Shown: positions 4,771-55,289 of the stretch, in pieces
How the letters are laid out: every line of letters starts with the position of its first letter
Numbering within the stretch: the first letter of the stretch is position 1
Sequence record: PV808484.1
Strand: one strand, 5' to 3'
Source of the DNA: a phage
Length of the DNA stretch: 64,000 nucleotides
Program-made: the position numbers and the translations under genes
The notes under the pieces: model-generated
The model's database searches: none
Told to the model about the DNA's origin: nothing
What the model saw: the letters and a program-made list of their open reading frames with translations, nothing else

Positions 4771-4771
4771 A

Positions 4772-5485: not shown

Positions 5486-5486
5486 T

Positions 5487-5969
5487 TTAACCACCTAATT
5501 GCAAATGTTTAGAAAGAACAATATCCCACTGATCACCACAACCGTTATCTATGCGGAACATAATGTACGTATCATCTTCTTCTACGACATATAATACCTC
5601 ATAGGAATTACAACAGCCTTCCCAATTTTTAACAGCCTCTGGTGTATCATGTGTAAAAATTTCATTACCATCATATGACCAAAACAAAGGAGTAAGGTTT
5701 TCGAACGTCAGTGAAGTAGGGTTCACTTCGTCTTTAACTGCTTCCTCATATTCCTTATGCGTTTGTACTGCTTTAGTTAGTGTACTCATGTCTATCTCCT
5801 TTTCTCCTTCTTGACTATGGAGGATAGCGAACTCTCTAAACTCCACCTCACGCCATGTTTTCAGGTAGTGCTTTATAATTTGATCAACATCTGCCTGTTC
5901 AACGTTACTTTTCAAGCAATAGTAGTCATGGTCTTCACCCATTCTACCCCATATGCTATACATTGTCAT
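5487..5969 (-). CDS. hypothetical protein
   Basis: 160 aa ORF. Confidence 0.5.
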   Translation of the reverse strand: MTMYSIWGRMGEDHDYYCLKSNVEQADVDQIIKHYLKTWREVEFREFAILHSQEGEKEIDMSTLTKAVQTHKEYEEAVKDEVNPTSLTFENLTPLFWSYDGNEIFTHDTPEAVKNWEGCCNSYEVLYVVEEDDTYIMFRIDNGCGDQWDIVLSKHLQLGG

Positions 5970-6237
5970 CTGATTGATCCTTCACATTGTTCTTGGCATA
6001 CACAGGAATAACATCATGGTGATCTTTATTACTTTCGTCTGTTAAAGCCCAAAACAACTTACCTGCCGGATGTTTAAAGATGTAAGCAATAGGTTCCTCT
6101 TCCTGTGCTTCTTTGCTACGGATGCCATCCCGCCAGGCAAGCCAAGTGTAGATCATCATCTCTTGACGTTCTTCTTCATTAGGCCACAGATGGGGTAGAA
6201 AGTTTTTATCAAACCATTGCTTAAACTCTTCAGTCAT
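5956..6237 (-). CDS. hypothetical protein
   Basis: 93 aa ORF; SD TAAGGAG region upstream. Confidence 0.5.
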   Translation of the reverse strand: MTEEFKQWFDKNFLPHLWPNEEERQEMMIYTWLAWRDGIRSKEAQEEEPIAYIFKHPAGKLFWALTDESNKDHHDVIPVYAKNNVKDQSDDNV

Positions 6238-6247
6238 AGTCTACTCC

Positions 6248-6412
6248 TTAGCGTACAAAGTTAACTTCTGCTTCTTTCAGCTTTGACACTTCTACATAAC
6301 CACCATGATCATCTTTAATCCATTCTTTTCCTTTACGGATGATAACAGGATATGTAGAGTGAGTAAGTTTAGGTACAGATCTTTTTGTTTTAGTGATAGA
6401 AATGTTTTGCAT
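6248..6412 (-). CDS. small hypothetical protein (54 aa)
   Basis: hand-translated MQNISITKTKRSVPKLTHSTYPVIIRKGKEWIKDDHGGYVEVSKLKEAEVNFVR; AAGGAG SD 6 nt upstream; below ORF-track cutoff. Confidence 0.35.
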   Translation of the reverse strand: MQNISITKTKRSVPKLTHSTYPVIIRKGKEWIKDDHGGYVEVSKLKEAEVNFVR

Positions 6413-6472
6413 AGTAATCTCCTTAGTAAATTTTACATAGAGTCTAGATTATTTAGTAGGTAGAGTCAATAA

Positions 6473-6739
6473 CTAATTACTGTTAGATCTGTACTCTGTC
6501 TTCCATTCACAATGGTAAACTTCAACAGGTTCTAACTTCCAGTGTTCAGGAACTAGTTCAGGACAATATCTACAAAAGAGAAATAGATAGATAACTAAGA
6601 CAGGTATTAAATAGTAAAATGGTATACGATCATAACCATACTTACGAGATAACATGTAGACATATAGATAGGGTATAACAATTAATCCTATAACTATAAG
6701 TAAGAAGAGAAGTATAAACCTTAGTGTAGTAACATCCAT
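6473..6739 (-). CDS. small membrane protein
   Basis: 88 aa; two long hydrophobic segments. Confidence 0.5.
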   Translation of the reverse strand: MDVTTLRFILLFLLIVIGLIVIPYLYVYMLSRKYGYDRIPFYYLIPVLVIYLFLFCRYCPELVPEHWKLEPVEVYHCEWKTEYRSNSN

Positions 6740-6817
6740 AGTATTCTCCTATACAGTAATATACTCTGTTCCTGCCCCTCCATGAGTGACAGGAACAATA
6801 TCTATAGAGAATACTAA

Positions 6818-6878
6818 CTCGCTTCGCTCGTCACCTTTCAGGTTTAGGGTAGCATGTTTTTCTGAAAAAGTCAATACT
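6818..6878. repeat. conserved noncoding element, copy 1
   Basis: CTCGCTTCGCTCG...TTAGGGTAGCATGTTTTT...GAAAAAGT; second copy at 35445-35504. Confidence 0.5.
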
Positions 6879-6904
6879 CTCCACAAAACTTTACAAAATA
6901 CTTT

Positions 6905-7177
6905 TTACATAGGTACAACAGAGTCTGTTTTGAAGTCGTACATATGATTTACACCTGTGATTTTTGACATAGAGATCGCACGTTTAGCACCTGCAATTAC
7001 CTGGTCTGTCTTCTTAATCTCTTCACGGAACTTACGCACAGTTAGAGAGAAGAAACGATGATCCATCCATTGACGATTCACACGATCACGCTTGAAGTGA
7101 CGGAAATCTTCAATCTGTTTATTGCGCAATCGGCGCAGTACATGCAATAATTTATAGTAAGGGTGTTTATTTTTCAT
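6905..7177 (-). CDS. hypothetical protein (basic)
   Basis: 90 aa ORF. Confidence 0.5.
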   Translation of the reverse strand: MKNKHPYYKLLHVLRRLRNKQIEDFRHFKRDRVNRQWMDHRFFSLTVRKFREEIKKTDQVIAGAKRAISMSKITGVNHMYDFKTDSVVPM

Positions 7178-7180
7178 AAT

Positions 7181-7609
7181 TTATTCTCCAAATCGAAAAT
7201 CGTCAATATCATCAAACCATACACAATGGCGAGTCCTTTCTTTTTCTGTTGCAGACATTGTTTCAACAGCTTTAGGACTAAGCACAACAGGAATGTAACG
7301 AACAGGTCGTTCATAGTAGTAGCCATACTTTTCTGTATTAGCTGCCTCAAAGACTTTACGGCGTTCTTCAAGATCTTCTATGGTGAATCCTACCATATAA
7401 CCATCATGTTTGCTACCCCATCCTTCCTCACTTTCAACAATCGGGATATAAAAGCCGTTACGCGTCCCTGACGCTGGTTTTTCTTGAGCCTGAAGGCAAG
7501 CCTCCCATCCTGCTTTAAAGACGTTATAGAGCGATTTACGCACGTTATGAGTGCCGCTTTCGCTTGCTGGATAGAGTTCATTAAATTTATCTTGGATTTG
7601 TTGTGTCAT
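7181..7609 (-). CDS. hypothetical protein
   Basis: 142 aa ORF. Confidence 0.5.
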   Translation of the reverse strand: MTQQIQDKFNELYPASESGTHNVRKSLYNVFKAGWEACLQAQEKPASGTRNGFYIPIVESEEGWGSKHDGYMVGFTIEDLEERRKVFEAANTEKYGYYYERPVRYIPVVLSPKAVETMSATEKERTRHCVWFDDIDDFRFGE

Positions 7610-13083: not shown

Positions 13084-13635
13084 ATGCGGATTACTGATAA
13101 GTATGTGTTCTTCTTCTCGGCAAAAGATGAATTTAGCAACTGGTATCTATCATCTTTTATTGAACCTTTAGCTCCCAAGTATAATAATTCTATCACAAGT
13201 TCTGTCGAATTTACTTGTGTGGAACAATATATGATGTGGAGAAAAGCATGTTTATTTTATGATTACAACATTGCATCTTCTATTTTAACCGGAGATCTAA
13301 GATATACAGGAGAAAAAGAACAAGCATATTATAAGCGACTAGGTAGATTAGTTAAAGATTATGATGAAGATACCTGGACTTCTTTACGGGAGAAGATTGT
13401 CAAACGTGGTTTGTATCTTAAATACACACAAAATGAAGATCTCAAAAATAAACTTATAGCTTACGCAGATAAGGAGTTCGTAGAGGCAAGCCCTTATGAT
13501 TCTATTTATGGTATCAAAATGGGGATGTGGGATCGTGATGTTGAAAATAAGGATTGTTGGAAAGGACAAAATCTTTTAGGAAAATGGCATACAGACCTTG
13601 CTGTTTATCTAAAAGCACAATCTGATATTTCCTGA
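13084..13635 (+). CDS. NADAR (YbiA-like, DUF1768) domain protein
   Basis: FFFSAKDEFSNWY, FTCVEQYMMWRKA, GIKMGMWD...NLLGKWH match NADAR signature blocks; ATG overlaps upstream stop. Confidence 0.7.
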   Translation: MRITDKYVFFFSAKDEFSNWYLSSFIEPLAPKYNNSITSSVEFTCVEQYMMWRKACLFYDYNIASSILTGDLRYTGEKEQAYYKRLGRLVKDYDEDTWTSLREKIVKRGLYLKYTQNEDLKNKLIAYADKEFVEASPYDSIYGIKMGMWDRDVENKDCWKGQNLLGKWHTDLAVYLKAQSDIS

Positions 13636-16936: not shown

Positions 16937-17042
16937 TTGACATATGCAAACAAGCCCCGTAATATGTACCACATAAAGCGGGGCAACGCCCCATAAGGTG
17001 AAATAAAAAATCACTTGACACCTGAAATCAGTAAGCTATAAT
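16937..17042 (+). promoter_or_regulatory. tandem promoters, first with 5' hairpin
   Basis: TTGACA-17-TAATAT then AAGCGGGGCAACGCCCCAT; second TTGACA-16-TATAAT. Confidence 0.5.
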
Positions 17043-17840: not shown

Positions 17841-17901
17841 TTGACAATGGTTTCTAATAACGTATAATACTTACATCGAGAGCGGGAACACTTCCCGCCT
17901 C
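17841..17901 (+). promoter_or_regulatory. promoter plus 5'-UTR hairpin cassette
   Basis: TTGACA-16-TATAAT then AGCGGGAACACTTCCCGCC. Confidence 0.55.
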
Positions 17902-39419: not shown

Positions 39420-39423
39420 AATA

Positions 39424-39457
39424 AAGCCCCTAGAATCGCTTCTAGGGGCTTTTGTTT
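39424..39457. terminator. bidirectional terminator at convergent operon junction
   Basis: AGCCCCTAG-AATCGCTT-CTAGGGGCT flanked by A-run upstream and T-run downstream. Confidence 0.7.
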
Positions 39458-39519: not shown

Positions 39520-39777
39520 TTAGGAATGCATAAAATCTTCTTCAGGGCAGGTTGAAAGATAAGAGATGCACGTTGGGACAACAACAACATTGTCTTTAAG
39601 GTTTGCAACCAAGCCTTTTGTAATTCCAGCCACTGCCCCGTTAATATCTGCTTGACGGATACCAAAACCTTGTTGTGCGGATAGATAACAAAATCCCTCA
39701 CCTTTCTGTTGATTATTATTGAAGTAATAAACGTAGTGCATCATAAAATGGTCTTTAACGATTTGTTCTGTGGTCAT
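39520..39777 (-). CDS. hypothetical protein
   Basis: 85 aa; AGGAGA SD. Confidence 0.5.
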   Translation of the reverse strand: MTTEQIVKDHFMMHYVYYFNNNQQKGEGFCYLSAQQGFGIRQADINGAVAGITKGLVANLKDNVVVVPTCISYLSTCPEEDFMHS

Positions 39778-39797
39778 AATATTCTCCTATAAGAAAA

Positions 39798-39811
39798 GGG
39801 GCTTTCGCCCC
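39798..39811 (-). terminator. intergenic GNRA-loop hairpin (attenuator-like) abutting RBS
   Basis: minus-strand RNA GGGGCGAAAGCCCC then UUUUCUUAUAGGAG and ATG. Confidence 0.45.
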
Positions 39812-39821
39812 CTTGGTCAAG

Positions 39822-40634
39822 TTACTTAGTCAAATGATCTTCTATCATTTTTATGAAAGCAGGATTGCTAAAAGCATCTGCTGCCTTTTCTCTATAAACA
39901 AAGACTCCTCTATCTTCGTAAAGAAGAGTTTCTTCGTAATTAATTCCTGGGTTAACAACAATCATTTTTGTACCCATATTAAGTGCAGGGAATAATTCCC
40001 AATTAAAATTGATAACTTGGTTTGAACATCCTACTACAACAACCAAATCTTGCATGGTCAAAGTATCAAACAAGTGAGCCATATCTGCATACAAAGGTGC
40101 AGCCTCACCAAAAAATACAACATTAGGCTTCACCCAGTTATAATCATCTATGTTTATACTATTGTAACCAATGTCTACCAGTGTTTTGTAATCTCCAGGA
40201 TGCATACGGTAAACTACTTCAGGAAGATACCCGTGCACGTGAATAACAGAATCCCTGTCCACACCTGCTCGCTCTAGTAGATCATCAACGTTTGTTGTCA
40301 AGTTTACTACTTGGTTAGGATATTCCTTAAACCACTTTGCTATTTGAATATGTGCAGCATTAGGTTGTACATCTTTAAGCTCAACACGTCTTTTGTTATA
40401 AAATTCGTGTGTTTTGGCATACAAGTCCATACCGTTCTCGTCTACACCACCGACCACTGGAAGATCTGGAGATGTTCTCACACGATAACCTGCTTGGAAA
40501 GCTCCAATATCGCAGACCTCTTCTAAGTCATATTCTTCCCATAAGGCACGACCACTATCTGTGTCTGTTCGGAACGTTCGAATCCCACTGTCTGCACTTA
40601 AACCTGCGCCACTAACAAAAATTACTCTTCGCAT
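39822..40634 (-). CDS. Sir2-family NAD-dependent protein
   Basis: GAGLSADSGIRTFR, TTNVDDL, VHG motifs; no CxxC zinc module seen. Confidence 0.75.
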   Translation of the reverse strand: MRRVIFVSGAGLSADSGIRTFRTDTDSGRALWEEYDLEEVCDIGAFQAGYRVRTSPDLPVVGGVDENGMDLYAKTHEFYNKRRVELKDVQPNAAHIQIAKWFKEYPNQVVNLTTNVDDLLERAGVDRDSVIHVHGYLPEVVYRMHPGDYKTLVDIGYNSINIDDYNWVKPNVVFFGEAAPLYADMAHLFDTLTMQDLVVVVGCSNQVINFNWELFPALNMGTKMIVVNPGINYEETLLYEDRGVFVYREKAADAFSNPAFIKMIEDHLTK

Positions 40635-40645
40635 TCAATATCCTC

Positions 40646-41176
40646 TTAGTAATCATCATCCCAAGAAGATGCGTCGTAACGCTCTTCCTCTTCGAAATCC
40701 CAATTAATTTCTACTCCAAAATCTAAAAACAATTTAACAATGTTTTCTGTAGAGTAGTATTTATCATAAGCATTAGCTAGTTCCCAATACTTGTCACTCA
40801 ATTTTTTATATTTAGGATCATTATAGTCATAATCTACTTTATAACCATAATCATACATCTCTTGTTCAGCTTTAAGCATAGCTTCTGGTGTAAGAAGATT
40901 AGGGAACGGACGATTTCTTTCTTTTAACTTAGAAGCAATCCAGTTTGCAACATTCGCCACTTCACCATCTCGATTATCACCTAAACAACTTGCATAATCT
41001 CCATCTTCGTAAGTGCCTAAATCCCCACTAACTTCATGTACAATAGACGAATACGATCCACACGTTTCACAATCTGAAAAAGTGTCTACTGTTGTAATAT
41101 CAATAGATAAAACTGGTAAAGCCATAGCTTCTTTCACACAAGCCTCCTCATATAATAACATGTCATCAAAACCCAT
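40646..41176 (-). CDS. hypothetical acidic protein
   Basis: start at internal ATG with GGAGGA SD; acidic C-terminus. Confidence 0.5.
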   Translation of the reverse strand: MGFDDMLLYEEACVKEAMALPVLSIDITTVDTFSDCETCGSYSSIVHEVSGDLGTYEDGDYASCLGDNRDGEVANVANWIASKLKERNRPFPNLLTPEAMLKAEQEMYDYGYKVDYDYNDPKYKKLSDKYWELANAYDKYYSTENIVKLFLDFGVEINWDFEEEERYDASSWDDDY

Positions 41177-41230
41177 ATATCCTCCAGACAAATAAAGCCC
41201 CTGTTTGGGGCTTTGGTTAAGTTTTACGGA

Positions 41231-41842
41231 TTATACCAGACTTTTAAGGTACTTGTCAAGGGCTTCTTGATCACCTTGACAAACATAGCAACGGAAGTCT
41301 TGAGCAGAAGGTTCTTTGTCCTCGTCCCAATCCCAATAGACAGTACCTTTATAGCGTGAGCCTGGGAACTCGAAGTATGCCACATGAGTAATATGGTGTG
41401 GGCCACCCCAAAATTCTGTAAAAGTAAATTGAGGATACGCTGCTTTAACTGTATTTTCAAACCAAGTTTTACGATCTAATGCTTCGTTTATAAAATAAGC
41501 ATGGCGTTCCATTTCATCCCAATCTTTCCAAACGCATTTTTCATCCAGAGAAAAAACAAAATCTTCACTGTTAAAATCGTCTGTATCTGATTCCAAAATA
41601 TCATAATCATGTGCACTAGGTATCCACCATCCAGCTTCTAATAGTGCTTTTGCAGGTACAAAACCTTTTTCAGCATATTGATCAAATTCTTTTACTCTAC
41701 GTACAGTGCAGTATTCATCTTCACCACCAATGTCCAGTAGACAAGCACCTTTGCGTCTTGCTGCAAGACCATGTGTATCAAAAACTACAACACTACCTTC
41801 ACCGTCTTCACGATCTACTTGATATGCAACTTTTTGAGTCAT
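41231..41842 (-). CDS. hypothetical protein
   Basis: 203 aa ORF. Confidence 0.55.
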   Translation of the reverse strand: MTQKVAYQVDREDGEGSVVVFDTHGLAARRKGACLLDIGGEDEYCTVRRVKEFDQYAEKGFVPAKALLEAGWWIPSAHDYDILESDTDDFNSEDFVFSLDEKCVWKDWDEMERHAYFINEALDRKTWFENTVKAAYPQFTFTEFWGGPHHITHVAYFEFPGSRYKGTVYWDWDEDKEPSAQDFRCYVCQGDQEALDKYLKSLV

Positions 41843-41965
41843 ATTACCCCCAATGTATATGGGAAATTAACCAAAAGATAAATTCCCAAAAACACCAACC
41901 AAGAAAAGTTAATGGAATTATAAAGGCTATCAGAGCAGTCTTCCAGCCTTTCCACAATGTTTCCA

Positions 41966-42955
41966 CTATTCCTCCATACATTTAAGAATATGTGCAATGA
42001 CAGGTATAGTCCAACCGTTACCTAACATCTTATATGCTTGTGTGTTACTACTCACTTTAAAGTAATCATCTGGCACACCTTGCAAGCGGCAACACTCTTT
42101 AACCGTTAACTTTCTATAATGTACGCCTTCACTCAATTTTTCAAAGGCATCTAGATATCTTCCAGGTGGAATGTAGGCTAATAGTACGTCTTTAGGCACA
42201 GTCGTGAGGCAACGAGTTTTTTCACTGTCCTGAACTTCCAAACAATGTACCAAACGATCAGTTTTAGATGTACTACGTTTGCCATTTTCATTAATTCTAC
42301 GCCCATATATTGCTGCCGGATAAAAAACCAGTTGTCTGCGACTCTTTTCAAAATACTGTTCTATATTACCACCTTTGGCATAATTTGCATCTATGCAATA
42401 AGCCTTATCTCTGTCTACAATACTATCATCTTCAATGATATCTTGCAACACTTCATTGGTAATCTCCCAGGGTTTTATTTCCCAGTTGCACCAGTATAAA
42501 CGTTGTCTATTCTGTGCCGTGAAATCTGCGGAGTTAATGAATACGGGATCAACACCTAAGTAACTTGTGATCACGTTTTCCCACTCCACTTTCATCTTAA
42601 CGTTTTCAAGCATGAACTTAACATTAGGATTAAACTTTTTAATATGTTCAAGAATTTCAACATATTCGAAGAATAGCTTAGATCGCGGATCTTGAAAGTT
42701 CAAACCCTTACCAGAAGAAGAGAAGCCTTGACACGGACTACCACCTAACAAAAGATCAATTTCTCCCCACGGGATATCCCATTCTCTCCATTTTGTAACA
42801 TCACCTAACTGAATAATATCTGGAAAATTTGCTTGGCTTTCAGCTACGGCAAATTTGTCTAATTCTGAAGCGTAATATGTATCTACTTCAATACCTGCAC
42901 TTTTTAGCGCAAGCATTCCTCCTGACATACCATCAAAAAGACTTAAAACTTTCAT
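41966..42955 (-). CDS. dcm: DNA cytosine-5 methyltransferase
   Basis: LFDGMSGG (motif I), GGSPCQGFS (motif IV), MLENV (motif VI). Confidence 0.85.
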   Translation of the reverse strand: MKVLSLFDGMSGGMLALKSAGIEVDTYYASELDKFAVAESQANFPDIIQLGDVTKWREWDIPWGEIDLLLGGSPCQGFSSSGKGLNFQDPRSKLFFEYVEILEHIKKFNPNVKFMLENVKMKVEWENVITSYLGVDPVFINSADFTAQNRQRLYWCNWEIKPWEITNEVLQDIIEDDSIVDRDKAYCIDANYAKGGNIEQYFEKSRRQLVFYPAAIYGRRINENGKRSTSKTDRLVHCLEVQDSEKTRCLTTVPKDVLLAYIPPGRYLDAFEKLSEGVHYRKLTVKECCRLQGVPDDYFKVSSNTQAYKMLGNGWTIPVIAHILKCMEE

Positions 42956-42957
42956 TA

Positions 42958-43368
42958 TTACTTCTTCTCCTTAACACTAGCTGGTAATTCTGCCTTGAGG
43001 CAGAAGTTTAAACGGTAAGCCTCATTCTCATTTAAAAGTACAGATTCACACGATAACCAGAACAAGAGATCCTCAATACCAGGACTGTTAAGCCAACAGT
43101 GCAGAAGAGAATGTTGTTCTATATCAATGTAATTTAGTAACAAGGCTTGTAAGGCGTAACTAGTTCCTGTCGTTTTTGCTTTTTCAAGGATGATATTGTG
43201 TTTACTAACAACTTTCTTCCTAAGACCAAACCATTTATTAACAACAACAGTCTCTTCTTGTAGTTGTTTTCTTATTTTCTCACATTCTTTAACTACAATC
43301 TGCATCTTATCCACTGCTGATTGAAGTTGTTCTTTTGTTGGGTTTACAAAATAATCACTATAATACAT
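42958..43368 (-). CDS. hypothetical protein
   Basis: 136 aa ORF; GAGGAG SD. Confidence 0.55.
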   Translation of the reverse strand: MYYSDYFVNPTKEQLQSAVDKMQIVVKECEKIRKQLQEETVVVNKWFGLRKKVVSKHNIILEKAKTTGTSYALQALLLNYIDIEQHSLLHCWLNSPGIEDLLFWLSCESVLLNENEAYRLNFCLKAELPASVKEKK

Positions 43369-43394
43369 GCTAAACTCCTCTTCTGTTTTTCTGT

Positions 43395-43423
43395 AGTCTA
43401 TTCGAAAAAACTGGTGTTGTCAA
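43395..43423 (-). promoter_or_regulatory. sigma70-like promoter (minus strand)
   Basis: reverse complement reads TTGACA-17-TAGACT. Confidence 0.4.
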
Positions 43424-43450
43424 CAAAAAACCCGCCGAAGCGGGTTTATA
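43423..43450 (-). terminator. rho-independent terminator
   Basis: minus-strand CCCGC-TTCG-GCGGG followed by TTTTTTG. Confidence 0.65.
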
Positions 43451-43708
43451 TTATTCTACAGGAACTTCTTCACCAAGAGAAACTTCTAAACGGAATGCTT
43501 TACTTTCAATACATTCACTACCTTTTAAGAAATCGAATTGCACTATAGACTGACTTAATAGAATAGATAGAATCACATCGCAATCTTCACTAGGGGCTAG
43601 ATGTTTGTATTCTTCCTTCAAGGTAACATCATAAAAACATAAGTCCCCTACTCCTAGTTCATCCCATCCTTCCCATGCATCTACAAAGTTAAATTCTAAA
43701 CCTTTCAT
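43451..43708 (-). CDS. hypothetical protein
   Basis: 85 aa; GAGGAGG SD. Confidence 0.55.
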   Translation of the reverse strand: MKGLEFNFVDAWEGWDELGVGDLCFYDVTLKEEYKHLAPSEDCDVILSILLSQSIVQFDFLKGSECIESKAFRLEVSLGEEVPVE

Positions 43709-44229
43709 ACAACCTCCTCGTAATCGTTATTGTGTTTTACTGTCTCAACATACAATAAAGATTCCATCTGTAATACATTACCAGAAAGAATAAACCCATA
43801 AGCCATTTCAGATGTGTCTATATCATATGCCCCGTCTTCCGGTTTAGCAAAGTGTAAAACTATTTCATCTGGGTTTTCTGCATCCCATAGTTTAGAAATT
43901 TTCCGAACCAGAATGTTAGCTAAAATAGTTGACATTCGGGATAAAGCTGTATCCTCATATCTTTTAAAACCTAGCCAATAGAGGTTAAGAATTTCTACTT
44001 CTTCTTGTGTTAAGTTTTTGTCTAAAGTAATCAGATCTGTAGAGCACGGCGTTTTTGTTGAACCTACTGTTACAAAACCTGGAGTGTTATGAAAAACAAT
44101 CTTAACTTTATCACGTATAAAGTTTAAACCTTGTGCCTCAACTATATATTGTATTGTAGGTACAATATCGTTTGTTACATCAATAAAACTATCTTTAATG
44201 ACGCTTATATTATTTCTGGACAAGACCAT
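43705..44229 (-). CDS. hypothetical protein
   Basis: 174 aa ORF. Confidence 0.55.
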   Translation of the reverse strand: MVLSRNNISVIKDSFIDVTNDIVPTIQYIVEAQGLNFIRDKVKIVFHNTPGFVTVGSTKTPCSTDLITLDKNLTQEEVEILNLYWLGFKRYEDTALSRMSTILANILVRKISKLWDAENPDEIVLHFAKPEDGAYDIDTSEMAYGFILSGNVLQMESLLYVETVKHNNDYEEVV

Positions 44230-44788
44230 TCTCCTCTAAAATAGGCTTAATAAATTCGAAAATTTGTTTTTTACTTTTACCTCGAATATTAAAACAAGGA
44301 ACATTAAACTTTTTAGCCAACATCCAAGCTGTTCTTGTACCACCTAAAGGATCTCCATTTTTATCTGTATTTGCACAAGCTAAAAGAAAACAAGATGGTT
44401 TTGGATTCTCAAGATCTCTTCCAAGAACTTGGTGGATATTTCTTTGATGTAATTTTTTAGCACCTTGAGATAATCTGTCCCAAGCTGGATGCAATTCTTT
44501 TGCATATTGCAAGGTTAGAGCATAGTTTACACTATCTGGTCTGTCAAGAACAATAACCTCTCCCTCTATTTCATTACCTTTAAACGAGAGCCAAGGGATG
44601 TATATTTCTTTCTTTGTATTGTTCCCACTATCATATACCCCGCATTCAAATGCGGAATCTGCACCTTCTGCTTTACCGGATCGCAAAATGAACCATGTAG
44701 ATAACCATTTTGCAACAGATACCATAGTATCCCATTCTTCGTCTGTAATATCTCTGCTACCAACACCTGTGTAGAATAAATCGCTCAT
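44210..44788 (-). CDS. DprA/Smf-like (SLOG-type Rossmann) domain protein
   Basis: start at internal ATG with AAGGAG SD; YTGVGSR, SGKAEGADSAFECG, GGTRTAWMLAKKFNVPCF resemble DprA motifs. Confidence 0.5.
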   Translation of the reverse strand: MSDLFYTGVGSRDITDEEWDTMVSVAKWLSTWFILRSGKAEGADSAFECGVYDSGNNTKKEIYIPWLSFKGNEIEGEVIVLDRPDSVNYALTLQYAKELHPAWDRLSQGAKKLHQRNIHQVLGRDLENPKPSCFLLACANTDKNGDPLGGTRTAWMLAKKFNVPCFNIRGKSKKQIFEFIKPILEENGLVQK

Positions 44789-44798
44789 GGTTTTCTCC

Positions 44799-45119
44799 TT
44801 AACAAGTAATATTGGGAGTAACAATTGGATTAACAATTGGAGTAATAGGGTACGTAAACCAAGGGCTTCCAATTTCCCAAGGATAATAAGGTCTACGAGG
44901 ATCGTATGGAGGAGTTACTTCAGGCTTTTTCCAAATCTCCGCTAATTGTTTCTTCCATTTATCCCTTGCTGTCTCATTATCTTCATCCAACTGTTCATCA
45001 TTATCTTTTATTTCTGGTTTTGGAAATAAAAGCTCTTTGACTAATTCAACATCTTCCGTCTCAATAGTAGTTTCTTTCGTAAGTTCTCCTACTGTTTCTT
45101 TAATTGTGATTTTATACAT
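44799..45119 (-). CDS. hypothetical Pro-rich protein
   Basis: 106 aa; Pro/Thr-rich C-terminus. Confidence 0.5.
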   Translation of the reverse strand: MYKITIKETVGELTKETTIETEDVELVKELLFPKPEIKDNDEQLDEDNETARDKWKKQLAEIWKKPEVTPPYDPRRPYYPWEIGSPWFTYPITPIVNPIVTPNITC

Positions 45120-45862
45120 TAGTCCTCCTCTAAAGTAGAATAAAATTGTAACGTATTTGAATCATCAAAATATGCAAAGGTTAAATTACCATTGAAGCAA
45201 GATCCTGTGTCCATATATACCCTATTACTGCTAATCACAGGTTTAGGAACATAAGAATGCCCGTGAAATACATAATCTACTCCTGAAACCCTAGGAAGAA
45301 GAATTCCTTCAAGTGCGCAATCTATCATATCACGATCCCACATTAAAGATTCTGTGAATCGAGAAACTTGCTCTTTATTCATATTCAAACAAAATGGCAA
45401 AACTTCTGTCACTGGCAAATGTTCCAAAACTGAAGGATACCCACCGTGAATAAAGCCTAGTTTCATATTACGATAATTGACAACAAGTACAACAGGTAAA
45501 TCTTCTAGCATCAAAGCAAGAGCAGTTGCACCCTCTTCTCCACACTCGTCTAGAACTGTATGGCCTCCGTTCTGAAACCAACATTCGTAATATCGTCTAT
45601 CACCTTCTAGCAACCCTTTAATCATCATATCTTCATGGTTCCCACGAATAGCATAACGATTTAGCTTTCTGGTGAATTCAACAACACAACGAAAATTCTG
45701 CTTGCCGCGATCTGTAAGATCTCCTAAAGATACAACAACATCTTGATCTCGGATACCTAAAGTATTAACACCTTTCTGGTACAAATCAAAGCAACCATGT
45801 AAATCACCAATAATAAACAGGTCTTGATCATCTTTTACACTAATTTCTTGATATACTAACAT
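45119..45862 (-). CDS. Ser/Thr protein phosphatase (calcineurin-like)
   Basis: IIGDLHGC, GDLTDRG, RGNHE metallophosphatase motifs; ATG chosen one codon in from TTG. Confidence 0.75.
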   Translation of the reverse strand: MLVYQEISVKDDQDLFIIGDLHGCFDLYQKGVNTLGIRDQDVVVSLGDLTDRGKQNFRCVVEFTRKLNRYAIRGNHEDMMIKGLLEGDRRYYECWFQNGGHTVLDECGEEGATALALMLEDLPVVLVVNYRNMKLGFIHGGYPSVLEHLPVTEVLPFCLNMNKEQVSRFTESLMWDRDMIDCALEGILLPRVSGVDYVFHGHSYVPKPVISSNRVYMDTGSCFNGNLTFAYFDDSNTLQFYSTLEED

Positions 45863-46198: not shown

Positions 46199-46771
46199 TT
46201 AATGTGTTAATGAAACTGCGTAGCTAAACACAGGTTCAGATATTACATCGGCTACAGTAATAAAAACGTCTTCGTCTTGAGTTGTTTCTACACGACATAC
46301 AGTTACACCATTCACCACGAATTCAACGCAATGTGGAATATTTTCACAAACGAAGGTAGTGTAAGTAACACCCAAAGCATCATACAAAGATTTAACAGTG
46401 TTTGCAAGTGCCGCAGTTTCTTCTTTTTCTGAGACAATGAATGCTGTAACAACAAGATTGTTTGCATAGTTTAGACTGTCCTCTATAGCCAATGATTTAC
46501 AAGGTAGTAATGCAAAATATTTACCTGGTTTAATCAGACCTGCTTCCCATTGATTCAAAATTGCCTGGGATGGTTTAGTAATATAAAACAGATTTTCACT
46601 TGGGTTATCAATATTACTTCTGGCGATACAACGTGAAGGATTATTAATATCAAACACATGATCAAAATCTACACAAACAGGTAAACTGAAAGGTGTGAAT
46701 TTTTTACCTAATAATCCTATGGCTGATAATATGTTTGCTGTGCTTATCTTCCCGTTAAAAGCTAAACGCAT
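46199..46771 (-). CDS. hypothetical protein
   Basis: 190 aa ORF. Confidence 0.55.
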   Translation of the reverse strand: MRLAFNGKISTANILSAIGLLGKKFTPFSLPVCVDFDHVFDINNPSRCIARSNIDNPSENLFYITKPSQAILNQWEAGLIKPGKYFALLPCKSLAIEDSLNYANNLVVTAFIVSEKEETAALANTVKSLYDALGVTYTTFVCENIPHCVEFVVNGVTVCRVETTQDEDVFITVADVISEPVFSYAVSLTH

Positions 46772-46995: not shown

Positions 46996-47658
46996 TTATT
47001 TAATATTCAATTTTGCACAAAGACGTTGTACCGCTTTGGCATCGAACAAACTCCCACGAATAGTTCTCTTTCCTGATTCATTCAGATGCTTTGCAATCGT
47101 CATATATGGCGTTTTACAAGCTCTGTATGCAACTAAAGAATCTTTTAAAGAAAGCGCAAACTCTCTTGAGCGTTTTGCTTCTTCCGTTTTCGTATAATCT
47201 GTTCTTTTGTATTTAGGGTTTGCTGCACCAAGAAGCGTTCCCTTCGCTTTTGCTACCTTAAGGCTCTTCTTAACACGATCAGATATTGCACGAGCCTCTT
47301 CTTCTGCCAGAACTGCTAAAATATTTATTATCATATTTTCAGCGGAGGGCATAGTTGCTATTCGTACATTAATCATCTCTAACAAGGTTGCAACAGAAGC
47401 TGTGTTACGTCCAAGACGGTCAACCTTAGCAACAACAAGTGTAGCACCTGTTTCTTTGCAAAGATTAACAGCTTTTACAAGCTCTCTACGTTGCTTCCAA
47501 TCGCCTTTACCCGAATAAAACTCTGCAAAGCTACCTACAATAGTATAATTTTCTTGTGAATCCAGGAAGCGTTGAATATCTGCTTCCTGTGATTCTATAC
47601 CATACTGGTTGCCTTGTTGTTTCTTCTTAGAAAGTCGATGATATAGTACAAACTTCAT
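46996..47658 (-). CDS. serine recombinase (resolvase/invertase family)
   Basis: N-terminal YHRLSKKKQ with catalytic Ser, VAKVDRLGRN, C-terminal HTH-like segment; GGAGGG SD. Confidence 0.8.
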   Translation of the reverse strand: MKFVLYHRLSKKKQQGNQYGIESQEADIQRFLDSQENYTIVGSFAEFYSGKGDWKQRRELVKAVNLCKETGATLVVAKVDRLGRNTASVATLLEMINVRIATMPSAENMIINILAVLAEEEARAISDRVKKSLKVAKAKGTLLGAANPKYKRTDYTKTEEAKRSREFALSLKDSLVAYRACKTPYMTIAKHLNESGKRTIRGSLFDAKAVQRLCAKLNIK

Positions 47659-52027: not shown

Positions 52028-52858
52028 TCACTCCTTGTTTAAAAGTATAGTTAAAGTTCTTACAATACCGCTATCAACACTTCGCGGATTTAAAGTAGGA
52101 TCTGTTTTTAAATAAGATGTTGCTGGTCTGACTGCTTTGGAATTATAGGTTGAAGCAGACACAGGATTAACTGTAACAGATAAATCTATAACAAGAAATA
52201 TCTTTCGTGCAAAATCATACCAAGAAATATAATCTGCACCTGCATAGTGTACAATTTTACTATTTACACCATCTTTTACAAGTTTAAAAATTGTTTCTGC
52301 AAGATCAGGTGCATAAGTAGGACATGATAAATGATCACATACTACATTAAATTCTTTTTGACCACCGTTGTAGCGTTCCAACATAGTTTTCAAAAAGTTA
52401 TGTCCAAATTCACTATAAACAGAAGCTGTTCTGATAATAAGTGCTGTAGGACAAACTGTTTGTACTAAAGTTTCACCTAATTGTTTACTGTAACCGTAGG
52501 TGTTCAAGGGGTTTGTTTTACTATCTTCTGTGCCAGCAACATGCCCATCAAAAACATAGTCTGTTGAAATATGTACAAACTGTATCAGTAAATCATTACA
52601 TGCTTTGGCAATGTTTGTTGCACCGTATGCATTAACATTTATACAGGTGTTAACATCTTCTTCAGCTTTATCTACTGCCGTGTAAGCCGCACAATTCACA
52701 ACAACATCAGGCACATGCTGTACAAGACTATTCATAACATCTTTAAAGTTGGTAATGTCTATATCACTTGCTTCAATCAAAACAACATCTTCTGGTGCAA
52801 CTTTTGCCAAAGATTGTCCTAATTGACCTTTTGATCCAAAGACTAAAAATTTTGTCAA
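52028..52858 (-). CDS. rmlD: dTDP-4-dehydrorhamnose reductase (probable TTG start)
   Basis: N-terminal FGSKGQLGQ Rossmann motif; typical RmlD length; AAGGAG SD. Confidence 0.8.
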   Translation of the reverse strand: MTKFLVFGSKGQLGQSLAKVAPEDVVLIEASDIDITNFKDVMNSLVQHVPDVVVNCAAYTAVDKAEEDVNTCINVNAYGATNIAKACNDLLIQFVHISTDYVFDGHVAGTEDSKTNPLNTYGYSKQLGETLVQTVCPTALIIRTASVYSEFGHNFLKTMLERYNGGQKEFNVVCDHLSCPTYAPDLAETIFKLVKDGVNSKIVHYAGADYISWYDFARKIFLVIDLSVTVNPVSASTYNSKAVRPATSYLKTDPTLNPRSVDSGIVRTLTILLNKE

Positions 52859-53409
52859 AGTATGATCTCCTTTAGTGTTTTTGCTTCCTGATCTTTTTGT
52901 GACAAGATAGGTTTAAAATTAATATCATTAAAGATTAAATCAAAACCCCAATCTATATTGATATCTGGATCATTCCACGCAAGACTACATTCTGAAGTCG
53001 GATCGTAATATTCTGTACATTTATATTCAAAATCAGCAATATCGCTAATCACAACAAAGCCATGAGCGAAACCAGGAGGAATCCAAAATTGTGTTTTATT
53101 CTTTTCAGATAAGAGAACACCTACCCATTCTCCAAATGTTGGACTACCAACCCTAATATCTACAGCAACATCATAAACTTCACCACGAACACAGCGTACT
53201 AACTTCCCTTGTGGGTTTTTCTTTTGAAAATGAAGCCCACGTAGAACTCCTCGGATAGAACGTGAATGGTTATCTTGGACAAAGTTTTGTTTACCTATGT
53301 ATTGATCATATAAAGCCTGATTAAAACTTTCTAAGAAAAAGCCACGTTCATCTCCGTAAACGTCAGGTTGAATGATCAACAAATCTTCGATTTTTGTTGC
53401 TTGAATCAT
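52855..53409 (-). CDS. rmlC: dTDP-4-dehydrorhamnose 3,5-epimerase
   Basis: GDERGFFLESF, RGLHFQ and cupin-type motifs. Confidence 0.85.
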   Translation of the reverse strand: MIQATKIEDLLIIQPDVYGDERGFFLESFNQALYDQYIGKQNFVQDNHSRSIRGVLRGLHFQKKNPQGKLVRCVRGEVYDVAVDIRVGSPTFGEWVGVLLSEKNKTQFWIPPGFAHGFVVISDIADFEYKCTEYYDPTSECSLAWNDPDINIDWGFDLIFNDINFKPILSQKDQEAKTLKEIIL

Positions 53410-53421
53410 TTAATTCCCCTT

Positions 53422-54291
53422 TTATTTTAATTTAAGTAAATACTTACCGTAGTCTGTTTTACTTAAAACCTCTCCAGAACTTTTTACAGAGTCTAAAGTA
53501 ATCCATTCATTTTTAAAAGCAATCTCTTCCAGGCATGCAACCTTCATACCTTGTTGCTTCTCTATTGCATGAACAAATTGAGATGCTTCCATAAGACTTT
53601 CATGTGTTCCTGTATCCAGCCAAGTGAAACCTCTTCCTAGCTTACAGACACGTAAAGCCTTTTCTTTCCAGTACATCTCATTTATATCTGTGATCTCTAA
53701 CTCCCCTCTAGCAGAAGGCTTAACGCTTTTAGCTTTCTGTATAACAGAATTATCGTAAAAGTACAAGCCTGTAATTGCATAGTTGCTTTTTGGTGCTTTT
53801 GGTTTTTCTTCAATACTTACTACTGTACCTTCAGAATCAAACTCAACAACACCAAATCTTTCAGGATCATTTACGTGATACCCAAAAATATTAGCTCCAC
53901 CATTCTTTTCAATATGTTCTCTAGCAGAATCTAAAATGCTACCAAAACTCTGACCAAAGAATAAATTATCACCTAGAACAAGTGCTACAGAATCTTCACC
54001 AATAAAGCTCTCACCAATAATAAACGCTTCTGCTAAACCTTTTGGGCTGTCCTGTATTGCATACTGTAGGGAAACACCAAAAGAAGAACCATCACCTAGA
54101 AGATTTACAAAATTAATTTGATCTTCTGGTGTTGTAATTATTAGTATTTCCCTAATTCCAGAAAGCATTAGGACAGAGAGTGGATAATAAATCATAGGTT
54201 TATCGTAAATTGGTAATAGTTGTTTACTAACCCCTTTAGTAACTGGGTAAAGTCTTGTCCCACTACCACCCGCTAAGATAATACCTTTCAT
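53422..54291 (-). CDS. rmlA: glucose-1-phosphate thymidylyltransferase
   Basis: [18 protein letters not shown]...[16 protein letters not shown]. Confidence 0.9.
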
Positions 54292-54299
54292 ACTCCTCC

Positions 54300-55289
54300 T
54301 TAAACTTTATTTTCCCACCACTCTTTGTTATCTACATACCAATCAATGGTTGAATAAAGTTTTTCTTCAAATGTGCCTTTAGCTTTCCACCCTAATTCCT
54401 TTTCAATCTTATAAGGATTCACTTCATATCTTAAATCATGCCCAGGTCTATCTGTAACCATCTCAATGAGGCTACAAGCATCTGTTTCAGATGGATATAC
54501 CGCATCCATATAATCACAAATCATATAGATTACATCAATATTAGTTCTAGGGTTTCTGCTCCCAATATTATATGTCTCTCCAGATTTGCCTTTAGTTACT
54601 ACCAGGTGTAATGCTTCTGCGTGATCATCAACGTATAGCCAATCTCTTACTTGAAGACCATCGCCATAAACAGGGATTGGTTTATTCATTAAGATATTTG
54701 TTATCGTCTTAGGTATTAGTTTTTCTGGATGATGATATGCTCCAAAATTATTTGAACAATTTGTTATAACTGTCGGAATACCATAAGTACGATGCCACGC
54801 TCTTACCAAATGATCGCTTGCAGCTTTAGATGCAGCATATGGACTACTTGGTTTATAAGGATTCTGTTCTGTAAACGGATAATCCCCTTCTTCCATATCA
54901 CCATACACTTCATCTGTTGAAATATGATGGAACATTTTAAGATTTGATTTATCTCCCATTAAACGAACAGCTTCTAGAAGATTAAATGTTCCAACAATAT
55001 TTGAATTTATAAAAACACTCGGTGATGCTATTGAATTATCTACGTGACTCTCTGCTGCAAGATGCATTATATAATCTGGATTAACATCTGCCACAATCTT
55101 AGCAGTTAACTGCGCATTTGTCAAGTCAACACGACAAAACTTTACATTAGGTGTTTCTGATAAATTTCTAGGGTCTGAAGCGTAACCCCATTTATCTATA
55201 ACGTAAATATCATTCTTAGTATTTTTAGCTAGGAAACGAACTACCGCACTTCCAATAAAGCCTAAACCACCTGTTACTAAGTATTTCAT
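54300..55289 (-). CDS. rmlB: dTDP-glucose 4,6-dehydratase
   Basis: TGGLGFIGS Rossmann motif, YAASKAASD catalytic YxxxK. Confidence 0.9.

Follow-up and report, generated by a model that had tools for sequence, protein, structure and literature searches.

A locus of Sir2-like, DprA-like, phosphatase and cytosine methyltransferase genes in phage record PV808484.1 and its interpretation as a probable array of independent accessory genes

We analysed a 64 000-nt stretch of the phage sequence record PV808484.1 (the window), in which a set of accessory genes, all on the minus strand, occupies positions 39822–45862. Over these 6 kb the nucleotide identity was 99.5% with EmilieFrey (Bas61, a phi92-like Escherichia phage) and 98.2% with phi92, and gene calls and names matched in both. 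Sir2, DprA/SLOG-like, phosphatase and C5 methyltransferase genes had been predicted here, and all four were recovered with correct domain calls among the following genes and sequence signals.

45119–45862, minus strand: lambda-type (NinI/PrpA-like) metallophosphatase, 247 aa (PF00149, Metallophos, 6e-14; phrog_246, 4e-77)
44799–45119, minus strand: 106-aa orphan, phrog_15301, pI 4.6 (phAPEC8 homologue 36% identical)
44210–44788, minus strand: stand-alone DprA-type SLOG (Rossmannoid) protein, 192 aa, a 'mini-DprA' with DprA Rossmann-domain motifs
43705–44229, minus strand: 174-aa orphan, phrog_8569, pI 4.6, net charge -11
43451–43708, minus strand: 85-aa acidic orphan, phrog_4991, pI 4.1, net charge -13
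43428–43447, minus strand: canonical terminator-like hairpin AAACCCGC-ttcg-GCGGGTTT with a T-run, predicted end of unit 1
43395–43423, minus strand: promoter-like TTGACA-17-TAGACT directly after the preceding hairpin, predicted start of unit 2
42958–43368, minus strand: 136-aa orphan, phrog_16551, pI 7.6, not acidic
41966–42955, minus strand: C5 cytosine DNA methyltransferase, 329 aa (PF00145, 1.7e-43, full length; TIGR00675, 3e-41)
41844–41966, minus strand: 40-aa hydrophobic, Trp-rich peptide, whose GTG start overlaps the methyltransferase stop codon
41231–41842, minus strand: 203-aa acidic orphan, phrog_8514, net charge -19
41230–41259, minus strand: sigma-70 consensus promoter TTGACA-18-TATAAT with TGn (extended -10), 12/12, within the 3' end of the 203-aa gene
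41194–41214, minus strand: hairpin AAAGCCCC-aaaca-GGGGCTTT trailed by T-rich sequence, lying downstream of this promoter and upstream of the RBS of the gene for the acidic 176-aa protein
40646–41176, minus strand: 176-aa strongly acidic orphan, phrog_9509, pI 4.05, net charge -25
39822–40634, minus strand: zinc-less class-III-like sirtuin (Sir2), 270 aa (PF02146, E 1.3e-22; phrog_2162, 1e-105)
39796–39814, minus strand: weak terminator-like hairpin immediately past Sir2
39520–39777, minus strand: 85-aa orphan, final gene of the leftward array (phAPEC8 homologue 47% identical)
39423–39452, no strand assigned: strong bidirectional terminator (stem of 13 bp) at the convergence point of the rightward and leftward gene blocks

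The interspersed proteins had been described as unknown and acidic, which was true of those of 176, 203, 85 and 174 aa but not of the 136-aa protein with its pI of 7.6. The 176-aa acidic protein carried four invariant cysteines in an alignment (C13, C36xxC39 and C64) and ended 8 residues short of its 184-aa cluster representative. Its AlphaFold pLDDT was 84.6, a fold search against the PDB returned no match (best E 0.17), and its distribution was confined to Stephanstirmvirinae, a phage subfamily, and a few jumbo phages. The label 'aminoacyl-tRNA synthetase' given to this protein in EmilieFrey was unsupported by Pfam or by the fold search. The gene for the 40-aa peptide is already annotated, as bas61_0189 and as phi92 gp042.

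The phage would be a phi92-like myovirus (Justusliebigvirus), and the region the distal end of its long block of leftward-reading early/middle genes. GC skew changes sign near 40 kb. The proposal that the genes make up one operon was not borne out, as terminator-like and promoter-like signals, called as consensus matches only, divide the region into three units. Predicted from these signals, unit 1 would end with the phosphatase, 106-aa, SLOG, 174-aa and 85-aa proteins, unit 2 would comprise the 136-aa protein, the C5 methyltransferase, the 40-aa peptide and the 203-aa protein, and unit 3 would comprise the acidic 176-aa protein and Sir2, followed by the other 85-aa protein. The SLOG block is set apart from the methyltransferase block by the hairpin and T-run at 43447–43428 and the promoter-like site at 43423–43395. 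Perfect sigma-70 consensus sites such as that at 41259–41230 occurred three times in the 64 kb against 0.11 expected, and this particular site was kept in four sub-lineages, in one of which the overlapping codon differs yet TTGACA stays. Relatives also keep the stem of the hairpin at 41194–41214 despite sequence changes. Promoter-like sites as a class were not enriched in the region (40 found versus 35.8 expected). The order of signals at the predicted start of unit 3 is odd and speaks against it, with the perfect promoter lying upstream of a terminator-like hairpin and overlapping coding sequence.

Alignment of Sir2 with 22 relatives showed the invariant motifs GAGxSxxSG..FR, N115, D117, H134-G135, KPNVxFFxE and G202xS204. 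The zinc-ribbon site held no conserved cysteine in Sir2 or in the 22 relatives, confirming that the protein lacks the zinc module. Its best PDB sequence match was CobB (1S5P, 1.5e-18), and its Y79 and R82 align with Y92 and R95 of CobB, the Tyr/Arg pair that desuccinylation by the E. coli enzyme requires (PMC6636992). Since this pair is kept, the pocket probably accepts a negatively charged group. With 86.6 bits, Sir2 stayed far under the equivalog cut-offs for CobB (320), which places it in a separate phage clade and not among CobB orthologues. From these motifs alone we infer a deacylase. It would be an active class III sirtuin (CobB/SIRT5 type) that depends on NAD+ and has lost the structural zinc site, and its likeliest substrate would be succinyl- or malonyl-lysine in proteins of the host or the phage. 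It is probably produced early by the host RNA polymerase using the consensus promoter and, as far as the sequence signals indicate, the 176-aa acidic protein is apparently co-transcribed with it. The peptide cleft normally owes its shape to the zinc module, which the entire clade has lost, so the substrate may be something other than a peptide.

According to a published alternative (PMC9503650), Sir2 would be a KptA/Tpt1-like RNA-repair enzyme that removes 2'-phosphates from cleaved tRNA or mRNA at the expense of NAD+, working with phage RNA ligase, polynucleotide kinase (PNK) and phosphoesterase against host anticodon nucleases. Sir2 does fall into one clade with Mydo and rV5-like proteins (56% and 48% identity, respectively), and in 4–6 of 15 lineages the clade sits among genes for phosphoesterase, RNA ligase 1, PNK-like ATPase, ATP-dependent DNA ligase and MazG-like pyrophosphatase. 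The invariant Tyr/Arg pair could bind phosphate as well as carboxylate, and the phage itself encodes RNA ligase, PNK, phosphoesterase and 14 tRNAs. However, Sir2 in this genome lies ∼30 kb from the RNA ligase block under its own predicted promoter, and in T5-like phages, the largest Sir2 lineage, neither RNA ligase nor PNK nor phosphoesterase was a recurrent neighbour. The sirtuin clade is moreover uniformly acidic (median net charge -13, pI 4.95), which is unusual in an RNA-binding enzyme, and we know of no sirtuin shown to remove 2'-phosphates from RNA, which also counts against this role. We consider RNA repair by Sir2 unlikely.

For the SLOG protein, a sequence-aware structural search gave DprA as the best matches, and the protein was nearer to DprA, MCP and LOG than to the SLOG domain of ThsA. 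The catalytic Glu of the LOG motif was missing on motif inspection, while a polar pocket was strongly conserved across the family (R12, S37, D44, H114, R116, N117, Q120 and T151). We interpret the protein as a stripped-down DprA Rossmann domain, whose ligand would be single-stranded nucleic acid or nucleotide-like. A more specific role as a minimal DprA would have it bind phage ssDNA and load or modulate a recombinase (host RecA or a phage recombination protein), or hide ssDNA from host sensors. All four DprA Rossmann-domain motifs are there, including the GSR and RN arginines, and the GSR arginine plausibly corresponds, by sequence, to R52 of H. pylori DprA, one of the ssDNA-binding residues R52, R143 and R170 (cited in PMC12961424). 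The match of this protein to PF02481 falls under the Pfam threshold, but the same family was matched by 50 of its 59 relatives. The PAK_P3 gene is flanked by a DNA ligase on one side and a UvrD-like helicase on the other, and the family has a median net charge of 0, matching the E. coli Smf Rossmann domain. Against these points, the protein has neither the SAM domain nor the C-terminal winged helix of DprA, and this DNA-transaction role stays a tentative possibility.

The original prediction had also likened Sir2 and the SLOG protein to NAD-dependent defence effectors. This likeness turned out to be weak, as the closest match of Sir2 is CobB, a housekeeping deacylase, the SLOG protein resembles DprA more than it does the SLOG domain of ThsA, and the PADLOC defence models matched neither protein, the sole hit being at chance level (0.0066). 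It is legitimate to hypothesise that NAD, or molecules derived from ADP-ribose, are what phage Sir2 and SLOG proteins act on, and such NAD and nucleotide-signal roles were published as predictions in 2022 (PMC9503650). In its island form, the SLOG protein would bind or cleave cADPR-type signals, as predicted in the same paper, Sir2 would consume or transfer ADP-ribose and the phosphatase would trim the products, together blunting Thoeris-like or NAD-depleting defences. Judged by the EmilieFrey annotation, this genome holds unusually many genes of NAD/ADP-ribose metabolism (Nampt, PRPP synthetase, a phosphoribosyltransferase, a macrodomain protein and a glycosidase of the NADAR/YbiA-like kind), which is compatible with a dispersed NAD-centred strategy and, together with the conserved SLOG pocket, counts in favour of such an island. 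A 47% identical relative, P0072, is fused with DUF4326, and PRPP synthetase/Nampt neighbours the SLOG protein in 5 of 37 lineages. Nevertheless, the commonest SLOG neighbours were PhoH, proteases, methyltransferases and nucleotide-metabolism genes, not ADP-ribose enzymes, and Sir2 and the SLOG protein differ in phylogenetic distribution and lie in separate predicted units. The absent PADLOC matches (ThsA included), the closeness of the SLOG protein to DprA, MCP and LOG, its missing LOG-motif Glu and a literature search that yielded no experimental paper also weigh against the island, which we judge improbable.

The methyltransferase translation carried FDGMSGG, GSPCQGFS, ENV, QNRQR and GNGW, and its PDB relatives were M.HhaI, M.HaeIII and DNMT3 (about 1e-23). 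It had been called Dcm; the C5 cytosine methyltransferase assignment stands, but orthology to E. coli Dcm was rejected (NF007772, 30 bits against a cut-off of 710), leaving a generic C5 enzyme that may shield phage DNA against restriction. The phosphatase translation contained GDLHG, GDLTDRG and GNHE, matched lambda phosphatase 1G5B over its full length (7e-30) and matched NF008516 under the equivalog cut-off (9e-28), and would be a Mn-dependent protein phosphatase of the lambda-PP type.

The gene order was common to Stephanstirmvirinae only. In phAPEC8 all cluster genes had homologues but two, the 40-aa peptide and the C5 methyltransferase, with a different methyltransferase in the place of the latter, and Sir2 was the only cluster gene in common with T5, Mydo and an rV5-like phage. 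Sir2 occurred in 984 phage records, mostly from Escherichia, Salmonella and Klebsiella and including T5, and the SLOG protein in 1247, led by Pseudomonas, Klebsiella, Escherichia and Aeromonas; in Mydovirus contigs the two are ∼20 kb apart. Any one neighbour family recurred beside Sir2 in at most 6 of 15 lineages and, for the SLOG protein, in at most 13 of 37. The Sir2, SLOG, phosphatase and methyltransferase genes thus constitute no conserved functional set or module. The region would instead be a lineage-specific array of independent accessory genes in at least three predicted transcription units, with functions assigned gene by gene and no multi-component system, a reading that we hold to be probable, if not strongly so. 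As the gene order is maintained across two genera of the subfamily, some functional linkage is conceivable, such as between the phosphatase and the SLOG protein or between the acidic protein and Sir2.

In comparison with known systems, phi92 (gp038–gp049) and EmilieFrey (bas61_0186–0196) show an identical gene set and order at 98–99.5% nucleotide identity with no material difference, and already carry the labels Sir2-like, DprA-like, Ser/Thr phosphatase and cytosine methyltransferase; the four-gene region is ordinary and known at the annotation level. Relative to E. coli CobB and human SIRT5, the phage Sir2 keeps GAGxSxxSG..FR, TxNxD, His-Gly, (K/R)PxVVxFGE and Tyr-x-x-Arg, whereas the four zinc-ribbon cysteines are all gone across the phage sirtuin clade, an insertion of ∼30 residues follows the cofactor loop in some lineages, and the phage protein is strongly acidic. 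The sirtuins with RNA-repair neighbours in rV5, Mydo, SP15 and Serratia phage BF (PMC9503650) belong to the same clade (48–56% identity), and this genome, like theirs, has RNA ligase, PNK, phosphoesterase and DNA ligase. Unlike in those phages, Sir2 here is ∼30 kb from these genes, at the array end, with its own consensus promoter and beside a lineage-specific acidic protein.

The counterparts of the Sir2 and SLOG domains of ThsA (Thoeris) are two separate proteins in this phage, encoded in different predicted units, and the phage Sir2 is CobB-like, not ThsA-like, the PADLOC ThsA models matching neither protein. The phosphatase shares all of the metal-binding motifs of lambda NinI (1G5B) but exceeds it by ∼25 residues and has an insertion at about residues 150–175. 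Finally, the SLOG protein has the same fold as the Rossmann domain of DprA/Smf and ShosA, with GSR, SGxAxGxD, RN and G-G/S-T..TA in the same order and at similar spacing, but at only 192 aa it is without the SAM and C-terminal winged-helix domains, and its family adds invariant residues of its own, H114, Q120 and an HPAW motif.

The 6-kb region at 39822-45862 was 99.5% identical to that of Escherichia phage EmilieFrey (Bas61) and 98.2% identical to that of phi92, both of them members of Justusliebigvirus, a genus of Stephanstirmvirinae; window coordinates are converted to EmilieFrey coordinates by adding 64,000. All of the genes named in the original prediction were found here by translation and by searches against Pfam, PHROG and NCBIfam, and in the EmilieFrey and phi92 records they had been named beforehand as sirtuin or Sir2-like, DprA-like, Ser/Thr phosphatase and cytosine methyltransferase. 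The region forms the far end of a leftward gene block of ~25 kb that opens with genes for thymidine kinase, thymidylate synthase, ribonucleotide reductase, dTDP-rhamnose synthesis, endolysin and PhoH. No RNA genes were found in the window with Rfam at gathering thresholds and ARAGORN.

The same genes had been assigned to one operon, a view that was at odds with internal signals predicted from sequence at 43447-43395 (hairpin with T-run, promoter) and 41259-41194 (consensus promoter, hairpin). The predicted signals were as follows:

43447-43428, minus strand: canonical terminator (AAACCCGCttcgGCGGGTTTTTT), a hairpin with a T-run
ending at 43395, minus strand: promoter-like TTGACA-17-TAGACT directly after the terminator, followed by a ribosome-binding site and the gene for a 136-aa protein
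41259-41230, minus strand: perfect sigma-70 promoter TTGACA-18-TATAAT with an extended -10, matching the consensus
41214-41194, minus strand: hairpin after the perfect promoter, followed by GGAGG and the start codon (ATG) of the gene for the acidic 176-aa protein
after Sir2, minus strand: weak hairpin, a sequence signal
39423-39452: strong bidirectional terminator at the meeting point of the leftward block and a rightward block of small early genes

The 64-kb window contained three perfect consensus promoters, where chance alone would give 0.11. The promoter and hairpin at 41259-41194 were kept in four sub-lineages, in one of which the overlapping codon was altered while TTGACA was kept, and sequence changes in the 41214-41194 stem of relatives preserved pairing. 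Because of these terminator and promoter signals and the conservation of the promoter-hairpin arrangement in the four sub-lineages, the region is read, on consensus predictions, as three putative transcription units, namely the genes from the phosphatase to an 85-aa protein, those from the 136-aa protein to a 203-aa protein, and the acidic protein with Sir2. The last two genes would make up a probable early pair driven by the host polymerase. The perfect promoter stands upstream of, not downstream of, the terminator-like hairpin (41194-41259, minus strand), also in phAPEC8-like relatives, and transcripts from it would start with a hairpin at about +10 to +30. This hairpin may terminate the upstream unit, act as an attenuator or stabilise the 5' end. 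The two other perfect TTGACA-N16-18-TATAAT sites in the 64 kb (17015-17042 and 17841-17868, plus strand) lie within the rightward small-gene block and are probably strong early promoters.

Sir2, a stand-alone domain of 270 aa (39822-40634), matched PF02146 with 81 bits against a gathering cut-off of 24. In an alignment of 23 members of its phage clade, including the T5 gene T5.102, the residues G9, A10, G11, S13, S16, G17, F21, R22, N115, D117, H134, G135, K169, P170, N171, F174, F175, E177, G202 and S204 were invariant in 23 of 23 sequences, and the motifs GAGxSxxSG..FR, N115 with D117, H134-G135, KPNVxFFxE and GxS make up the complete NAD-binding and catalytic set of sirtuins. The remark that Sir2 lacks the zinc module was correct and extends to the whole clade, since none of the 23 aligned proteins had a conserved cysteine of a Cys4 zinc ribbon in the segment from H134 to K169, whereas CobB has its zinc-ribbon cysteines in the aligned stretch.

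The closest solved relative of Sir2 was E. coli CobB (1S5P, E 1.5e-18), and the cut-offs for CobB orthology were missed (NF040867, 86.6 bits against 320; NF001753, 106.5 against 243). A Tyr-x-x-Arg pair, Y79 and R82, was invariant in the clade and aligned with FYNARR of CobB 1S5P, that is Tyr92 and Arg95, which are reported to be important for desuccinylation (PMC6636992). The clade was acidic throughout, with a median net charge of -13. We conclude that Sir2 would be a catalytically competent, class-III-like sirtuin with a pocket that accepts a negatively charged group, and the motifs by themselves would most simply be read as those of a desuccinylase-type lysine deacylase.

With the PADLOC profiles of defence Sir2 proteins, the sole match of Sir2 was at chance level (PDC-S65, E 0.0066, 13.8 bits), and its adjoining genes encoded orphan proteins with no fused or adjacent defence sensor or partner. 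No SirTM-type operon (macrodomain with a lipoyl-carrier-like protein) was found around Sir2, the sole annotated macrodomain gene of EmilieFrey being at 56.9-57.6 kb, ~46 kb away. Further NAD/ADP-ribose-related genes are scattered over the EmilieFrey genome according to its annotation and none is clustered with Sir2; they are a YbiA/NADAR-like N-glycosidase (window 13084-13635, plus strand) and, outside the window, a group of macrodomain protein, phosphoribosyltransferase and HAD protein (EmilieFrey 56.9-59.1 kb) and a PRPP synthetase with a nicotinamide phosphoribosyltransferase (EmilieFrey 139.3-142.0 kb). In the T5 locus (4262-7530), the sirtuin T5.102 lies within a unit of eight genes (T5.100-T5.107) for which both a promoter and a terminator are annotated, and T5.105 is labelled 'Sir2' in RefSeq as well, yet has only 168 aa. 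About two copies per locus of phrog_2502, a family without assigned function, are found beside Sir2 in T5-like phages.

The interspersed proteins, described beforehand as unknown and acidic, were mostly acidic (net charge -7 to -25), though not every one of them. That directly 5' of Sir2 (176 aa, 40646-41176, minus strand) has four invariant cysteines, C13, C36xxC39 and C64, and its AlphaFold model was reasonably confident (pLDDT 84.6) and matched no solved structure (best E 0.17, TM 0.23). Its EmilieFrey/GenBank label, 'aminoacyl-tRNA synthetase', was rejected, as the only Pfam match was a sub-threshold one to PhetRS_B1 (E 0.032) and no fold match was found in the PDB. We also considered that this Cys4 protein might supply the missing zinc module of Sir2 in trans. 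As a general account this was rejected, since the equally zinc-less sirtuins of T5, Mydo and rV5-like phages occur without any homologue of the acidic protein; the acidic family was limited to Stephanstirmvirinae and a few jumbo phages. The window allele ends in ...WDDDY and is C-terminally shortened, the cluster representative (184 aa, 98% identical) and distant relatives having an extra acidic, Cys-containing tail (EEDIECEE or EEEECQED). For the other orphan proteins, matches were limited to PHROG families without assigned function.

The phosphatase assignment was confirmed, with the motifs GDxHG, GDxxDRG and GNHE of a lambda-type PPP enzyme in the translation and a full-length match to lambda phosphatase 1G5B across residues 3-230 (7e-30). 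The methyltransferase matched PF00145 end-to-end with motifs I (FxGxG), IV (PCQ), VI (ENV), VIII (QxRxR) and X (GNG). The gene called Dcm thus encodes a C5 cytosine DNA methyltransferase as proposed but not an orthologue of E. coli Dcm (CCWGG), since the Dcm subfamily profile NF007772 gave 30 bits against 710 in a match spanning the C-terminal 50 residues only. M.HhaI, M.HaeIII and DNMT3 were as near to it as any other protein, and by these profile and motif comparisons 'Dcm' is an over-specific name. At 41844-41966 (minus strand) a hydrophobic peptide of 40 aa with 6 Trp (METLWKGWKTALIAFIIPLTFLGWCFWEFIFWLISHIHWG) has a GTG start that overlaps the methyltransferase stop codon and is preceded by GGAGG, which suggests a small membrane peptide whose translation is coupled to that of the methyltransferase.

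The SLOG protein (192 aa, 44210-44788) had the features of the SLOG superfamily, namely a Rossmannoid fold in which strand 1 is followed by a Gly-rich loop and strand 2 by a motif of the GGxxG(D/E) type. Its family consists of stand-alone proteins of ~160-210 aa found almost exclusively on phage contigs, in which G10, R12, S37, G38, A40, G42, D44, H114, R116, N117, Q120, G123, S132, G149, G150 and T151 are invariant. VGSR, SGKAEGAD, QRN and GGTRTA of the SLOG protein correspond, in like order and spacing, to VVGSR, SGLARGID, RRNR and SGSLVTA of E. coli Smf; in the family consensus the pairs were YTGVGSR/VVGSR, SGxAxGAD/SGLARGID, LHxRNxxQVLG/PRRNRIISGLS and GGTRTAW/SGSLVTA. When the SLOG profile was compared with Smf by hhalign and hmmsearch, only the N-terminal motifs were aligned, and the other motifs were matched by eye. 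The protein itself did not match Pfam PF02481 (DprA) at E <= 0.1, while 50 of 59 relatives matched it at E <= 1 (best 3.6e-6) and ten matched LDcluster4, a SLOG family. Both the N-terminal SAM and the C-terminal winged-helix (DML1) domains of DprA were absent from this single-domain protein.

LOG-type nucleotide N-glycosidases carry the motif PGGxGTxxE with a catalytic Glu. This Glu had no counterpart in the family, whose consensus was GGTRTAWxLA with a variable residue at the would-be Glu position. Since the four Smf motifs occur in order and the LOG Glu is missing, the motif evidence identifies the SLOG protein as a putative minimal DprA-type Rossmann domain without SAM or winged-helix domains, for which ssDNA or a nucleotide-like molecule would be candidate ligands. 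No PADLOC match to ThsA-type SLOG was obtained, and the ThsA SLOG domain ranked under DprA, MCP, LOG and YpsA in the comparisons of the SLOG protein. A PDB search with one relative (P0043) gave no match; another (P0072) carries a fusion to DUF4326 that is discussed in PMC9503650. An apparent fusion of SLOG with NMN adenylyltransferase in Klebsiella phage K54lambda1.1.1 was discarded, as the ORF listing showed a SLOG gene of 212 aa standing alone behind a PhoH-like gene. In that record (OY979426.1, 2697-4755) product names are apparently displaced relative to the ORFs, the 'nicotinamide-nucleotide adenylyltransferase' gene overlaps the stand-alone SLOG ORF, and the link between the two is an annotation artefact.

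We searched by tblastn with all 20 proteins of the array against the Sir2 loci of four phages. In phAPEC8, of another genus in the same subfamily, array homologues were complete save the C5 methyltransferase and the 40-aa peptide, and a different methyltransferase and extra genes were present, while in T5, Mydo and the rV5-like phage only Sir2 was shared. Sir2 homologues were found in 984 phage records, mainly from Escherichia, Salmonella and Klebsiella, with T5-like phages among them, and the SLOG protein in 1,247 records, mainly from Pseudomonas, Klebsiella, Escherichia and Aeromonas; on Mydovirus contigs with both genes the two were ~20 kb apart. The notion of the cluster as a conserved set failed on these differing distributions and on the three phages with Sir2 only. 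In an unbiased clustering of neighbouring genes, no family was linked to Sir2 in more than 6 of 15 lineages from IMG/VR, and recurrent neighbours were phosphoesterase, RNA ligase 1, PNK-like ATPase, ATP-dependent DNA ligase, MazG-like pyrophosphatase and exonuclease. Around the SLOG protein (37 lineages), PhoH was the commonest neighbour (13), then ClpP-like and HslV-like peptidases and methyltransferases, with NinI-type phosphatase (6, all near kin of this phage), dCMP deaminase and PRPP synthetase/Nampt (5) in addition. The surroundings of both genes are generic auxiliary metabolism with no pathway.

At 52028-55289 (minus strand) the EmilieFrey annotation gives homologues of RmlA, RmlB, RmlC and RmlD, which make up the whole dTDP-L-rhamnose pathway, within the nucleotide-metabolism block of the phage; the sugar might be destined for DNA, the virion or the host surface. 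Two 190-aa proteins (46199-46771 and 450-1022, minus strand) are each labelled 'putative tRNA synthetase' in EmilieFrey; Pfam lent the label no support, and the two resembled each other only faintly (24% over 98 aa, E 0.003). A serine recombinase (46996-47658, minus strand; Resolvase N-terminal domain, 8e-22) lies within this accessory array of a virulent phage, and since its 57% identical homologue in phAPEC8 is on the opposite strand ~8 kb past Sir2, the gene has moved between genera.

Neither the genes and their names nor the NAD/ADP-ribose hypotheses are new, all being present in GenBank records and a 2022 comparative-genomics paper. A survey of viral NAD and ADP-ribose domains (PMC9503650, 2022) predicted that the majority of viral sirtuins form one clade acting in RNA repair and that viral SLOG domains degrade cADPR-type signals. 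The literature searched yielded no experimental study of the phage sirtuin clade or the SLOG family and no paper joining phi92 and Sir2; a recent anti-Thoeris hotspot paper on Migulavirinae is devoted to RyR-type sponges in N4-like phages and names neither SLOG nor DprA, and the NARP3 paper mentions Sir2 solely as a defence protein. The original prediction was only partly supported: its domain calls were correct and its NAD suggestion is in print as a possibility, yet the genes make up neither a single operon, by the predicted signals, nor a conserved set.

As a discovery, the cluster is of little weight because its names and hypotheses are already public. Its lasting interest lies in two widespread phage families (984 sirtuin and 1,247 SLOG records) without a demonstrated function in the literature searched, for which the conserved Tyr/Arg pair, the uniformly acidic sirtuin clade and the consensus early promoter of the Sir2 unit are leads for biochemistry in a BASEL-collection phage that infects K-12. 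One joint reading, which we regard as improbable, is that the Cys4 protein and the zinc-less sirtuin would form an immediate-early two-gene unit driven by host RNA polymerase, that the sirtuin clade (~1,000 phage genomes including T5) would be a non-deacylase whose Tyr/Arg pocket takes a phosphate- or carboxylate-bearing non-peptide substrate (e.g. the 2'-phosphate of an RNA or an immune signal derived from ADP-ribose), and that the mini-DprA SLOG family (more than 1,200 phage genomes) would bind or hydrolyse a nucleotide immune signal rather than bind DNA.

The Sir2 neighbour set recovered here reproduces the neighbourhood behind the KptA-like RNA-repair proposal of PMC9503650. The adjacent RNA ligase, kinase, phosphoesterase and MazG genes of that group are absent at this Sir2, the RNA-repair genes being at 132.7-136.4 kb in EmilieFrey, ~30 kb from Sir2 at 103.8 kb, but this Sir2 belongs to the same phage clade with 48-56% identity. 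As to the suggested likeness to defence effectors, both Sir2 and the SLOG protein were nearer to the housekeeping proteins CobB and DprA.
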